From Candidatus Saccharimonadota bacterium (GTDB taxonomy: Bacteria; Patescibacteriota; Saccharimonadia; Saccharimonadales; Saccharimonadaceae), in contig JAFRBI010000006.1 of assembly GCA_017404935.1 (NCBI GenBank), forward strand, positions 32,379-96,378: DNA of 64,000 bases, read 5' to 3'. The notes under the pieces are model-generated. The model was given only the letters and a program-made list of their open reading frames with translations, did no database searches and was not told the origin of the DNA. This document shows positions 12,276 through 61,875 of this stretch, piece by piece; position 1 is the stretch's first letter; each line of letters starts with the position of its first letter. The position numbers and the translations under genes were made by a program.

Positions 12276-13493
12276 CTATTTTTTGTAATATCTAGACAAA
12301 AATTGTTTTTTATACTCGGCGAAAGTGCCACCCAGAATTGATTCACGAATTTTGTCGGTGGTTTTTACTACAAAATGTTCGTTGTGAATGGAAGCGAGGA
12401 CTTTGGCGGTAATTTCGTCGGTTTTGAAAAGATGATGTAGGTAGGCTCTGTTGTAATTTTTACAACACTCACAATCACATTCTGGCATCAGGGGAGTAAA
12501 GTCATTTCTGAATTTGGCATTTTTGATATTAATACGGCCATCCAGAGTGTAAAGTGAGCCGTTTCTGGCCATGCGGGTAGGGGCAACGCAGTCAAAAGTA
12601 TCACAACCGTATTCGGCACCGATGAATAAGTCAATTGGCTCTTGTCCCATGCCAAGCAAATGTCTTGGCTTTTCTTCTGGCAAAATACTATTGACCGTCT
12701 TTAGCATTTCATCCATGCCGTCAGCCACAAAAACACCACCGATGCCAAAGCCATCCACATCCTTACTTGCGCAATACTTGGCAGATTCGGCGCGAAGGTC
12801 GTTGAAAGTGCCGCCTTGCACAACAGCATACAAATACTGTTCCATATGATGATGACAACATTCCTTTCTCGGGCCGCGTCCGTCCGGCCCATCGCCATGG
12901 GCGGACGGCGCTTCTCCTCGCGCTGCCGCGCTCCGGAATCCCTCGAAAGAAACGTCACCATCATCTCTCAAGCGTTGGTGTTCTGCTACGCAGCGGTCTA
13001 GCCAACGGTGGGTGCGGTGCATGGCGTCCTCCATATCTTGGCGGTTTTCAGATTTTGCAAGCTGGTCAAACGCCATGTGAATATCAGCACCAATAGCCCA
13101 TTGGGCTCTCATGGATGATTCGGGCGTCATTTCTAGTTTGTCACCATTGATATGAGATTTGAATTTGGCGCCATTCTCATCTATTTTAACATCTGGCAGA
13201 GAAAAAATCTGAAAACCGCCAGAATCGGTGAAGGTCGGGCCATGCCAAGAAGAAAACTCGGCCAAGCCGCCAGCCTCTTTGATTAAATCTGCGCCTGGCG
13301 CCAAGATTAGGTGATAGGTATTAGCAAGAATAGCTTGGGAGCCTAAATCTCGCATCTGCCTCATAGTGAGAGCTTTGACGGTAGCTCTGGTAGCAGCCCC
13401 AACAAAGCACGGAGTTTTGATGTCGCCGTGCGGTGTATGAATTACGCCGGCGCGCATGAGACCATTTTTCTTTTCTAGATCAAATTTCAACAT
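12276..13493 (-). CDS. tgt: tRNA-guanine transglycosylase with internal hairpin-element insertion
   Basis: [36 protein letters not shown] zinc site. Confidence 0.97.
12846..12964 (+). repeat. GC-rich hairpin element (core 12869-12944) with inverted arms, in frame in tgt
   Basis: tcgggccgcgtccgtccggcccatcgccatgggcggacgg...ggaatccctc; arms atgatgatgac..ttcctttc / gaaagaaacgtcaccatcat. Confidence 0.9.
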
Positions 13494-14560
13494 ATTAGCA
13501 TTGAATCTCCATAACTTAGAAAATTATATTCTGCTTTTATTGCATGGTCGTAGGCATTTTTTAGATTATCCCATCCGGCGAAGGCAGAAGCAAGCATGAG
13601 GACGGTAGATTTTGGCGCATGAAAATTAGTTAAAAGAGCATCGACGATTTTGAATTCGAAACCTGGATAAATAAAAATGTCGTCTTCGCCTTCGGGTTTG
13701 CCAGTCCTGGCGTAATATTCGAGTGTTCTAGCCACCGTGGTGCCAAGAGCTACCACCCGTTTGGCATTATTGATGGCCTCTATGGTGTCCTCTGGGATGT
13801 GATACCACTCGGAATGCATTTTGTGATCTTCGATATTGTCAGTTCTGATTGGCAAGAATGTACCGAGCCCGACGTGGAGGGTGAGATATTTAATAATCAC
13901 GCCTTTATTTTTTAATTTTTCCAATAATTCTTCGGTCATATTGAGGGAAGCAGTAGGAGCGGCGGCGGAGCCCATTTCACGAGCCCATACAGTTTGGTAA
14001 CGCTTTTTGTCGTCTTCGGTAGCGTCGCGATGAAGATATGGTGGGAGTGGTACAGTGCCATATTTTTCGGCAAGTTCGGGAAGGGGAGTATCGGACTCTA
14101 CTTCTGCGATGCCATTGCCTAGTAGGTGCTTAACAGTAATGCTTCTTCGACGCGCTTGCGCCGGCCCATCGTTATGGGCGGCGCTGCGCTCTTCTTGCTC
14201 CCGTTGTCGCAAGACGGTCTCAGAAGCATCACTATTAAGCACTTCCAATATATCCCCCTCATGGAGTTTGCCGCGATACATCACGTGCTGAGGCTCATCG
14301 CCGTGGCGCTCCAACACTACCAATTCGCGTTTGCGACCGTCTGGGAGTGAACAAAAAATTCTAGATTGCATCACGCGAGTGTCGTTCAAAATCAAAACAT
14401 CTCCGGGGTTTAGAAAATCTGCTAAGTCCCGATAATAACTATCTTTAATTTCGCCATTTTTGCGGTTCAAAACCAAAAGCCTAGTGGTGCCACGAACTTT
14501 TGGTGGAAACTTGGCAATTCTATCTTCTGGAAGATCATATGAAAAATCAGAAACTAGCAT
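13487..14560 (-). CDS. queA: S-adenosylmethionine:tRNA ribosyltransferase-isomerase with internal insertion
   Basis: [49 protein letters not shown]. Confidence 0.97.
14126..14242 (+). repeat. GC-rich hairpin element (core 14147-14221) with 21-bp inverted arms, in frame in queA
   Basis: Core contains cccatcgttatggg; arms gtgcttaacagtaatgcttct / agaagcatcactattaagcac (19/21 complementary). Confidence 0.88.
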
Positions 14561-15116
14561 TTTTTAAATCTTTCTCAATTTGTTTTTGGTAGCGTTCTTC
14601 TTCGGAAAATATACAGCCACAATATTTTTGCATATAAAGTCCCATCTCACGTGCCTTATTTTGGCCTTCGCGAAACCCAACACGAAAATCGCGATACAAA
14701 AATTCCACACCCGAAAGTTTTGATAGTTCTTCACATACTTCTTTGAGTTCTTCGTGTTTTTGATATGGTGAAACTAAAAGGGTAGTAGTAAAAGCATCAT
14801 AGCCGTGTTTGGCGGCATATTTTACAGTTTCGCCAAGGCGTTTTTTGTAACAATAATTCACGCAGCGATTAGAAATATCCGAAACTACATTTTTGCAAAA
14901 TTCGTCCAAACCATAATCTTCAATAAAGACCGACTCGGCGCCAACTTTTTTGCAATAATCTTTGAGGCAGTCACGGCGAGTCTTATATTCTATATATGGA
15001 TGGATGTTTGGGTTGTACCAAAAAATTGTTGGCTCAATGCCTTCAGAGCGTAATGAGTCAATACAATAAACGCTGCAGGGAGCGCAGCAGGTATGCATGA
15101 GAACTTTTTTTGCCAT
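14547..15116 (-). CDS. queH: epoxyqueuosine reductase QueH
   Basis: HTCCAPCS, YNPNIHP, RC..CY, FTTTLLVSPYQ, QKYCGC. Confidence 0.93.
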   Translation of the reverse strand: MAKKVLMHTCCAPCSVYCIDSLRSEGIEPTIFWYNPNIHPYIEYKTRRDCLKDYCKKVGAESVFIEDYGLDEFCKNVVSDISNRCVNYCYKKRLGETVKYAAKHGYDAFTTTLLVSPYQKHEELKEVCEELSKLSGVEFLYRDFRVGFREGQNKAREMGLYMQKYCGCIFSEEERYQKQIEKDLKNASF

Positions 15117-60407: not shown

Positions 60408-60408
60408 A

Positions 60409-61875
60409 TTGAAGATCATTGGTCTAGACATAGGCACCAAACGTATTGGTGTAGCACGTGCTGATTCTACCACTAGAATCGCAGTTCCATCAGGTTTTAT
60501 TAATGTTGATGGCACCGAATGGACAGAAATCGAAAAACTAGCCAAATTATATAGCACTAATTGGTTCGTGCTGGGGCTGCCGCGTAGTAACGAAGGCAAT
60601 GAAACTCAACAATCACAATATGTGCGAAGTTTTGCCAAAGAGTTACTAAAAAGAATTCCTGATGCAAAAATTAGATTTCAAGATGAATCTTTAACTTCGG
60701 TAGAAGCCGAAGAAAGATTAAAAGCTCGCAAAAGCAATTATGAAAAAGGCGAAATTGATTCGGAAGCCGCCACCATCATTCTGCAAGATTTTCTAGAATC
60801 TTTTAGAGGGGGTTCTGGGACACCGTCTTCTTCAGAGGCACTGTCCTCGCGCCCGTCGTTACGGGGCTCGGACGCTCTTCTTGCTCCCGTTGTCGCAAGA
60901 CGCTCCTCAGAAGAGGTGTCTCAGAACCCATTGCAAGAAATTCAAGAGAATGTTAAAGTAGTAGCAAAGAAAGAAGGTGACAAAATTAAGATGAGTGCGA
61001 GGAAGACAAAGCATAAAATGAAGAAGTGGCCGATTTTTCTGGTGCTTCTTTTGATTGTCGCAGGGTGCGTGGGGGGATTTTTCCTGGTTCAAAAAATTCG
61101 CGAGCATAATGCCGAAGAACGTCGCAAAGAATACGCTAGAATTGAAGCCGAGATGAAAGCCGAAGTTTTTACCTTTACAATCAAGCCGGGTGAAACGATT
61201 TTTGATATTAAAAAACATCTAGTTGAGGTTGGGTACACAGCAGAAGAAGTAGATAAAGCTTTTGCAGCAGAATATAATTTTCCGTTTCTCTCTGGTCGCC
61301 CAGCAGGAGCAACCCTTGAAGGCTACCTTTATGGAGAAACTTACGAATTTTATAAAGGCGTGCCAGTAGAAGATATTATTACTAAATATCTCGAGAAAAT
61401 GGGGGAAGTAATTACTGAAAATAATTTAGAAGCAAGATATGCGGCGCACGGTTTGTCGCTTTATGAAGGAATTACGCTGGCTTCGGTGGTACAAAAAGAG
61501 TCCCCAGCTGGTGAACATTCAAGGGTGGCTCAAGTATTTTTGACAAGACTCGCATACGGAATACCGATGGGAAGCGACGTAACTGTAACTTACGCTCTTG
61601 ATGTAGAAGACCCAGATCGCACCATTTACAGAGATAACCAAGCAGCACTTAAAATTAATTCTTGCTATAATACTCGCCTTCACGCTGGGCTTCCTTGTGG
61701 ACCAATTTCAAACCCTTCGCTAGCCTCGCTTCTGGCTGTAGCTGATCCAGCCGACACTTCTTATCTGTATTTCTTGACAGGGGACGATGGTTTGATGTAT
61801 TATAGTTATACAGAAGCTGAGCATAACCAGAACGCTTACTTACATTGCCAGAACCTCTGTAACATTTCATTATGA
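60409..61875 (+). CDS. ruvX-mltG: fusion of RuvX/YqgF nuclease and endolytic transglycosylase MltG
   Basis: GLDIGTKRIGVA, VLGLP, DESLTS, IDSEAATIILQ; then TM, LEGYLYGETY, ASVVQKE, PCGPISNPS, YLYFL. Confidence 0.9.
   Translation: MKIIGLDIGTKRIGVARADSTTRIAVPSGFINVDGTEWTEIEKLAKLYSTNWFVLGLPRSNEGNETQQSQYVRSFAKELLKRIPDAKIRFQDESLTSVEAEERLKARKSNYEKGEIDSEAATIILQDFLESFRGGSGTPSSSEALSSRPSLRGSDALLAPVVARRSSEEVSQNPLQEIQENVKVVAKKEGDKIKMSARKTKHKMKKWPIFLVLLLIVAGCVGGFFLVQKIREHNAEERRKEYARIEAEMKAEVFTFTIKPGETIFDIKKHLVEVGYTAEEVDKAFAAEYNFPFLSGRPAGATLEGYLYGETYEFYKGVPVEDIITKYLEKMGEVITENNLEARYAAHGLSLYEGITLASVVQKESPAGEHSRVAQVFLTRLAYGIPMGSDVTVTYALDVEDPDRTIYRDNQAALKINSCYNTRLHAGLPCGPISNPSLASLLAVADPADTSYLYFLTGDDGLMYYSYTEAEHNQNAYLHCQNLCNISL
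60810..60929 (+). repeat. GC-rich hairpin element (core 60832-60908) with inverted arms in the RuvX-MltG linker
   Basis: cccgtcgttacggg core; 3' half shared with the queA copy; arms gggttctgggacaccgtcttct / agaagaggtgtctcagaaccc. Confidence 0.88.

Follow-up and report, generated by a model that had tools for sequence, protein, structure and literature searches.

The window analysed here is a stretch of 64,000 nucleotides (C1:32379-96378) from the genome of a Candidatus Saccharimonadota bacterium, a genome of 740 kb in 11 contigs with a GC content of ~41%, which the source names of its proteins and of related contigs assign to the genus Candidatus Nanosyncoccus of Candidatus Saccharibacteria, from ruminant gut; C numbers denote contigs of this genome and L numbers (L002, L199 etc.) denote orthologous loci in its relatives. 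A GC-rich core of ~76 nt occurs nine times in the window and ~26 times in the genome, where the copies fall into three sub-families, and further copies are found in relatives. Our comparisons show that the unit shared by the copies is this core alone, and that the stem of ~20 bp that closes each of them is made, locus by locus, from the local sequence.

An earlier, sequence-only reading of the window had placed all nine copies and each was confirmed; the copy that it began at 12846 exists but lies in tgt and not in queA, whose own copy is at 14126. The structured strand, by which we mean the strand on which the element folds more stably, is the minus strand in every window copy but the sixth. 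The tgt copy (12848-12965; gene on the minus strand) has arms at 12848-12868 and 12945-12965 and a core, with its TC/TC junctions, at 12869-12944. In queA, also on the minus strand, the copy at 14126-14242 has a sub-family 3 core (14147-14221) between arms at 14126-14146 and 14222-14242. The mnmA copy (32545-32662; gene on the plus strand) has arms at 32545-32565 and 32642-32662 with two mismatches, both A/G; its right arm codes for the host residues NCLVR and at the outer ends of both arms GCGAAC/GTTCGC falls on conserved VR codons. In alaS (plus strand) the copy occupies 34290-34405, with arms at 34290-34308 and 34387-34405, the right arm coding, by its position, for host LLSG. Two copies are intergenic: one at 40282-40396, whose AT-rich arms (40282-40301 and 40378-40396) look like the stem of a bidirectional terminator tipped by the core, and the sixth, at 42149-42273, which has arms at 42149-42172 and 42251-42273, is oriented oppositely and has its structured strand on plus. 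The copy at 49907-50024 lies between the convergent recR (plus strand) and acyl-CoA ligase (minus strand) genes. At ~56799-56907 a copy sits at the 5' end of an rluB-like pseudouridine synthase gene (minus strand), with arms at 56799-56814 and 56891-56907, looser pairing out to 56782-56925 and a left arm that codes for host CLRLNKFL. The called ATG of this gene (56896) is inside the copied arm (56889-56907) and the S4 motif RLNKFLA follows the element, which appears to supply a start codon and an N-terminal extension of ~30 residues. The ninth copy (60810-60929) is inside a ruvX-mltG fusion gene on the plus strand and has a sub-family 3 core between arms with one bulge (60810-60831 and 60909-60929).

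The majority of copies span 112 to 119 nt from one stem end to the other, with arms of ~20 bp. The arms align with a median score of 31 across the copies, compared with a mean of 9.6 (SD 2.25; 99.9th percentile 23) when 5000 randomly chosen sites with this geometry were scored. The arm identities of the earlier reading were reproduced: 19/21 for queA and for mnmA, 21/22 for recR (25/26 with the short helix P1 of the core included) and 23/26 for alaS with P1. A single 1-nt bulge, lying ~8-13 bp from the core, is present in most stems. We considered the bulge as a repair of the reading frame and rejected this idea because the intergenic copies are bulged too.

The outer arms are common to no two loci, their mean identity being 0.38 against a shuffled null of 0.36, which bears out the earlier statement that the arms differ at every locus. 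Even in pairs whose cores are at least 90% identical the outer arms are only 0.21-0.64 identical, and cores that are 90-96% identical have arms that resemble each other no more than shuffled sequences do; the arms of the alaS copy are likewise unrelated to those in lepA and engA. The script that measured arm identity misplaced the junction in sub-family 2, so the highest of its arm identities are inflated. Semi-conservation of the arms is confined to their inner 4-8 nt (YTTC|TCG ... CTC|GAAR, with AGTGCTTTC in some sub-family 3 copies) and in most copies P1 is flanked by a TC...TC dinucleotide that forms a 2x2 internal loop, although the empty recR site shows no clean TC duplication. The elements are short (~117 nt), present in ~26 copies in 740 kb and without coding capacity of their own, which are traits of miniature elements, but the terminal inverted repeats, borne by the element and common to its copies, that characterise transposable elements of the miniature inverted-repeat class (MITEs) were not found.

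The origin of a stem can be followed at the recR/ligase junction, where an empty allele is available. At L199 the ligase is 92% identical to that of the window, recR and the ligase gene converge with a 4-nt overlap, and the top strand reads GAGAACCGACAGGCACTCTAA|CGGTTCTTTAGGGCC, where the bar marks the insertion point and CGGTTCT... comes next. The window allele consists of L199-type sequence to which have been added the core (49929-50002) and, just before CGGTTCT, TCAGAGCGCCTGT (50003-50015). The left arm (49907-49928) is the end of recR itself (ENRQAL, TGA) and TCAGAGCGCCTGT is, save for one transition, an exact 13-nt inverted copy of its last part (49916-49928). Thus 13 of the ~22 bp of the right arm are new, while CGGTTCT, the 7 nt that follow (50016-50022), is found in the empty allele as well, where it is complementary to the AGAACCG of recR because both proteins carry N-R in the same codons. 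The new copy ends exactly at this pre-existing 7-bp inverted repeat, so an exact inverted copy and a junction at a microhomology, the two marks of quasipalindrome template switching, are found together; such a junction is the signature of fold-back or template-switch copying that ended at a microhomology. The ligase has acquired a new C-terminus, ending ALKENRQAL* in the window and ALKNR* in many relatives, and its last six residues are those of RecR. A third state of the locus, also without a core, is present at L198, whose ligase is 98% identical: there RecR ends in ENRTNL* and the ligase in KNKSKD*, and the 11-nt overlap of the two genes is itself a quasi-palindrome (AAAACA..AATCT TT AGATT TGTTTT).

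Orthologues lacking the two arms were also found for MnmA, EngA and ValRS, so that neither of the observations which, on the earlier reading, would have spoken against it was made. Three species have independent insertions in one variable loop of MnmA and the arms differ each time. At L002 the left arm, over its whole length, codes for the conserved LKELLFR, whose counterpart in empty alleles is LKDV.LR, and what the right arm codes for, SQNKSSF, is new. The layout is the one seen at recR: where the outer stem lies, the empty allele L007 already carries CGAACAA(15 nt)TTGTTCG. In EngA (Der) an empty linker of 120 nt is present in more than 25 species, and wherever the element is present the last helix of GTPase domain 1 serves as the left arm and its in-frame reverse complement as the right arm. 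The nearest empty allele, L200, has on the right the same AACTCTCTTAAACT as the window genome; on the left, host GATGAATT has been turned into AGAGAGTT, which pairs with the right-hand AACTCTCTTAAACT. In both MnmA and EngA the two outer ends of the stem fall on host residues, and in EngA the fact that both are host positions indicates that copying ran in both directions. The claim that one arm consists of conserved host codons and the other of their new reverse complement therefore holds for MnmA, EngA and recR/ligase, and the host arm does occur on either side of the core. As a refinement, the outermost 5-9 bp of the stem can pre-exist, in the form of a brief inverted repeat or microhomology (recR and MnmA), or be made by altering the host codons opposite (EngA). 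As the origin of the stem, an inverted copy of local sequence is supported by these allele comparisons.

Five orthologous EngA copies have just 1-3 arm mismatches in 22 each, and the same single bulge, although their host arms differ by 30% between species and a host arm paired with the copied arm of another species shows 28% mismatch. The stems thus covary across species and are maintained while the host arm drifts, in agreement with the earlier suggestion that a long closing stem is under selection. Cores are less durable. At L074 and L103 we find shortened versions of the EngA copies of L076 and L040, which amount to core decay by internal deletion, and at L032 a truB-type core sits on a stem whose orthologues carry an alaS-type core. 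EngA arms of groups B and C resemble those of group A despite lying 4 codons further along. ValRS, 867 aa in its empty form, has two inserts in the window genome. At site 1 the 5' arm begins in the conserved DDRFE, and the allele L194 (protein P0182) reads DDRFEASASNLLYYS there, with the DNA AGATTTGAGGCGAGCGCATCAAACCT; RFEASASNLLYYS retains only the outer arms, so that L194 looks like an occupied allele after loss of its core and inner arms, that is, a deletion footprint. At site 2 the outer arms, GAGTTTGA[A/G]AATAG and CTAT[T]TCAAACTC, are the same in the window genome, L195 and L114, and this one stem bears a different core family in each. On this evidence stems outlast the decay or replacement of their cores.

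Occupied alleles exceed empty ones by a net 84-99 nt in MnmA, by 96-99 nt at the first ValRS site, by 90-111 nt at the second (~100 nt once an extra module is subtracted) and by only 63-90 nt in EngA, where a gain smaller than the full element means that part of the host linker has been replaced. Set against a whole element of ~117 nt and a core of ~76 nt, the gain beyond the core is about -15 to +35 nt. Of the earlier proposal that an insertion equals the core plus one inverted arm of ~21 nt, the inverted local copy is retained and the fixed length is not: beyond the core the gain averages less than one arm and is variable, which fits a switch back at a downstream microhomology and not a ruler-like duplication.

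About 20 copies lie in open reading frames (ORFs) that stay open across the element, in either orientation to the gene, when only 1.4-1.9 of the three frames per strand would be expected to be open by chance. The hosts are tgt, queA, mnmA, alaS, the rluB-like gene, the ruvX-mltG fusion, engA/der, lepA, valS (two copies), leuS, polA, gatA, gatB, tyrS, truB, gyrA, tsaE and genes for a prepilin peptidase and a methyltransferase, and both reading frame and orientation vary among them. An open host frame in every coding copy points to selection on read-through, and the elements, to judge from the frames, most likely escape removal and are translated into a loop of ~30 additional residues.

In every sub-family the core folds as a three-way junction in which the short helix P1 meets two hairpins, the long hairpin A and hairpin B. 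Hairpin A never varies at its tip (CCC.T...GA.GGG in the orientation used here), its lower stem is variable with many double compensatory changes, and a consensus from MAFFT and RNAalifold returned just hairpin A and part of hairpin B, the alignment not being a structural one. Rfam 15 gave no match at the gathering score over the whole window and none at E<=10 over 32400-34500, a stretch that holds two copies. Whole-element queries against phages and plasmids gave only borderline GC-rich chance matches, an exact 19-mer of hairpin B matched three viral contigs, none of which showed the architecture of the element, and a metagenome scan with a ValRS query returned few close relatives. The cores in alaS, lepA and engA of the window genome are 96-97% identical to one another, whereas the orthologous engA core of L031 is only ~80% identical (counted by eye from printed sequences), which suggests recent spread or homogenisation. 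Some otherwise normal cores have GC-rich extra modules of 27-35 nt (e.g. TTGCCTTCGGCAATTCGCGTCCCAAGGGGCGAGCG) nested exactly at a hairpin tip: that of hairpin A at C3:16358-16400, C3:106770-106890 and the EngA locus L033, and that of hairpin B at L044, also an EngA locus.

The two strands of the element are not equivalent. When whole elements were folded, the complement of the strand first displayed was the stabler in 25/26 copies, by 7.8 kcal/mol (p = 1e-5), and with arms limited to 24 nt it was so in 23/24 genome copies and in all 27 copies from relatives (50/51). This structured strand has tandem G·A junctions and, in sub-family 2, a UACG loop. Arm mismatches on it are G·T wobbles in 37 cases against 7 of the opposite kind (20:4 in the window genome and 17:3 in relatives). 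The mismatch bias that the sequence-only reading had proposed to look for is therefore real, but it resides on the complement of the strand displayed there; together with the covariation, the wobbles on one strand bear out the second of the earlier alternatives, the maintenance of a long closing stem in single-stranded form. The structured strand is the mRNA strand in only 11/21 coding copies, while in 23/26 copies it is the strand with negative GC skew (p = 9e-5), so the constraint is tied to the strand of the chromosome and not to transcription. We infer that selection acts on a single-stranded DNA form, or, less likely, on an RNA form. Two other causes of the wobble bias were rejected: replication-linked cytosine deamination, because the biased strand is C-rich, the opposite of what is predicted, and misincorporation in a single polar fold-back, because the host arm can be on either side. 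On contig C3 (119 kb), where ~85% of long ORFs are on the plus strand and, unlike in the other contigs, GC skew is negative throughout, 7/7 copies follow the skew and not the gene strand.

The core studied here is not the only one with local stems, for the window genome has at least three further, unrelated core families, each with long locus-specific stems. A nested tatD-type palindrome of ~170 bp occurs in the window at 28937-29108 (C1:61315-61486; core type placed at 28968-29069) and again at C5:104930-105110, and the two loci share the core TTGAATTTTTAAGCACGTCATACA... within outer stems that are, once more, locus-specific. Family X has a core of ~60 nt with CCGGGCCGCTCTGGCCAAGTC, in either orientation, in ~10 copies (C9:58470-58565, C9:61105-61219, C10:63725-63823, C3:23440-23539, C3:36688-36784, C6:5338-5435, C10:8032-8124, C10:70470-70551, C3:67464-67544, C7:51231-51295 and C2:747-836), each closed by a near-perfect locus-specific stem of 17-28 bp. 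The six copies of family Y (C3:38671-38766, C3:43945-44064, C5:31212-31334, C5:120850-120977, C8:38863-38988 and C10:32113-32246) have a core of ~80-90 nt and moderate GC with the internal hairpins GCATCGTGATA...TATCACGATGC and GCACAAAATC...GATTTTGTGC, in stems that are long, AT-rich and different at each locus. Long local stems around unrelated cores suggest that a generic stem-making process is at work, one that does not depend on the sequence of the core.

Other repeats were seen in passing. An 11-mer-seeded scan for inverted repeats found one in tgt just downstream of the element copy (window 13039-13221; C1:45417-45599), with an 18-nt arm span TGGCGGTTTTCAGATTTT and a 147-nt spacer. At C10:53155-53263, ~750 nt upstream of lepA, three near-perfect palindromes with stems of 12-14 bp and loops of 1-3 nt stand in tandem at a spacing of ~40 nt, one of them GTTTGCGGTCACAA A TTGTGACCGCAAAC and the other two similar. 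A long low-complexity coding repeat rich in Glu, Lys and Asp, with a GAAGAnGAnGAA periodicity, occupies 58900-59125 in the window at the start of ORF 58608-60407.

We favour, at a probability of roughly 55%, a reading in which the locus-specific stems are built by fold-back or template-switch copying of the flank and are then kept by selection. A core would lie in a spot that tolerates it, for example in the linker of a protein, at the end of a gene or in a terminator, and at replication its strong hairpin would make the growing DNA strand fold back and copy ~13-20 nt of its own flank in reverse; the new 3' end would then return to the proper template at a few matching bases. The outcome would be an inverted copy of one flank, either added or written over the other flank. 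Further such events, combined with selection for pairing on one strand, would keep the arms complementary as the host arm drifts, and the stem would persist across species and survive decay or replacement of the core. Inside genes just the in-frame, stop-free outcomes would survive, the element being read as a loop of ~30 residues. A core might arrive at a new site by copy-choice, at the semi-conserved YTTC/TCG junction, from a copy elsewhere, or through some enzyme. Template switching between the arms of inverted repeats, and the concerted evolution that results, are established processes (Ripley 1982 onward; PMC5941160), but the mechanism as a whole is pieced together from the pattern of the alleles. 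We entertain only tentatively, as something that we would not bet on, the wider proposition that these are mobile DNAs that spread without a transposase by template switching in replication, the core being copied from another copy before the new strand folds onto its flank and realigns at a microhomology, with inverted duplication of the target and with stems that serve as landing pads on which cores are swapped.

Several observations weigh against the copying model. Arms that are tightly ~20 bp long, with a positioned bulge, would suit recognition by a protein, or selection, better than polymerase accidents; the amount added is not constant, as the EngA gains show; and selection has to be added to the model because the wobble bias is strand-specific while the host arm may be 5' or 3'. 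The model needs two or three template switches and leaves the arrival of the core unexplained. The insertion events are reconstructed by comparing alleles and none was caught directly; the empty alleles are 8-20% diverged, so that junctions are not base-exact. The exchange of three core families on the one stem of ValRS site 2 and the modules at hairpin tips further suggest that cores may home to existing hairpins. It is accordingly conceivable, though in our estimation unlikely, that the stem or a short precursor of it came before the core and that a structure-specific activity inserts cores into its tip. The constant arms of ValRS site 2 and the truB-type core on the L032 stem in EngA would be explained in this way, as would modules at the tips of hairpin A and hairpin B, and the intergenic copies do sit on terminator-like stems; 7-bp inverted repeats separated by 13-15 nt exist at recR and in MnmA even where the site is empty, and TC/TC at both junctions could be a 2-bp duplication. 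Nevertheless, full arms are absent from the empty alleles, what is new being 13 of ~22 bp at recR and 84-111 nt in ValRS and MnmA, and the extension of a 7-bp repeat to a 20-bp stem would still need a process. Core-free hairpins within genes with stems of at least 10 bp are also rare, numbering only ~25 genome-wide, some of which are terminators in spurious ORFs.

If the stem were an RNA feature, such as an intron-like, bypass or regulatory mRNA hairpin, it could have arisen from point mutations under selection with no copying at all. The G·U-type bias on one strand, the ~8 kcal/mol by which that strand is stabler in 50/51 copies, its tandem G·A junctions and UACG loop and the compensatory changes in hairpin A and in the arms are all compatible with this possibility. 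We consider it improbable because the structured strand tracks the GC skew (23/26) and is the mRNA in barely half of the coding copies (11/21), because an open host frame in all coding copies would be needless if the element left the RNA, because the new arm at recR arrives as an inserted block and not as substitutions and because Rfam has no match even at E<=10. Less probable by far is an ordinary element of the MITE or Rickettsia palindromic element (RPE) type, with arms that are its own terminal inverted repeats, mobile with it and fast to diverge. The semi-conserved inner 4-8 nt of the arms would accord with such an origin, and so would the likeness of EngA group B and C arms to those of group A in spite of the 4-codon shift. 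However, near-identical cores have unrelated arms, whole arms match conserved host codons (MnmA L002, the EngA helix and the end of recR), only the core and 13 nt are new at the recR site, and the net gain is below that of arm, core and arm together; the present data already contradict it.

Among described systems, RPEs are the nearest relatives of these elements and quasipalindrome template switching the nearest process. RPEs are small palindromic repeats that often lie in frame in housekeeping genes and are read through (Ogata et al. 2000, summarised in PMC10969869), a family of them being defined by a conserved element-encoded peptide (PMC10969869). The elements described here resemble them as palindromic repeats of ~100-150 bp in a reduced genome that lie in frame in unrelated housekeeping genes and add a peptide, and in-frame read-through is indeed what we find. 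The palindromic sequence of an RPE is itself borne by the element, whereas in the present case only the core is shared and the closing stem of ~20 bp is local: neither a whole palindrome nor a conserved peptide is common to the copies, the two are unrelated in sequence, and the cores found here are highly GC-rich against a genomic GC of 41%, with an orientation that tracks GC skew. With REP/REPIN-RAYT and IS200/IS605-derived elements the present ones share the form of dispersed hairpin-forming repeats in which one folded DNA strand is active, and IS200/IS605 are linked to the replication strand. In those systems the hairpin arms are element-encoded, shared and mostly extragenic, and the elements depend on a Y1 HUH transposase; here the arms are local and the copies mostly intragenic, and shared, element-encoded, mainly extragenic hairpins were not what we saw. 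A tblastn search of the window genome with an approximate IS200 TnpA probe, a weak test, gave no match better than E=1.1.

Integron attC sites conserve structure over sequence, function as one folded strand and have extrahelical bases and a variable tip. Our elements are similar in structure over sequence, in the single folded strand and in the extrahelical bases, but in attC the stem base keeps conserved R and L boxes and the tip varies, while in our elements it is the base that varies and the tip that is conserved. Nor do they come with cassettes or an integrase context, and copies are inside genes. The GC clusters of yeast mitochondria, and the 'byp' elements, are GC-rich hairpins that spread in an AT-rich genome, coding regions included; byps belong to an unrelated system and are skipped by the ribosome, unlike the present elements, whose host frame is kept open and which are most likely translated. 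In quasipalindrome mutagenesis the nascent strand takes its own flank or the opposite arm as template and then realigns at matching bases, which makes the arms perfect and preserves them in that state through evolution (Ripley 1982; PMC5941160), and both the recR junction and the covarying arms match this process. What has been described amounts to the correction of a few bases in repeats that pre-existed; our literature search found no description of systematic building of ~20-bp stems around a mobile core at dozens of loci and in coding sequence, and no published description of these elements. The combination of a mobile core with a locally copied stem thus appears to be undescribed.

Transposition in its textbook form produces direct duplications of the target and carries the element's own inverted ends, whereas in the elements studied here the closing stem would be built from the target itself. 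If this is true, short structured DNA can colonise essential genes by copying errors instead of by cut-and-paste, and these genomes would offer, in nature and on a large scale, an instance of genomes shaped by quasipalindrome or fold-back synthesis. New protein segments would arise from it as well, among them the loops of ~30 residues, the C-terminus and stop codon of the ligase and the start codon of the rluB-like gene. The inserts lengthen conserved proteins, which matters for the annotation of Saccharibacteria and other genomes of the candidate phyla radiation (CPR), and they recur at hot spots: the EngA linker, an MnmA loop and two sites in ValRS. Should spread by template switching without a transposase prove to be true, reduced genomes that do not have the exonucleases that restrain it would be especially open to it.

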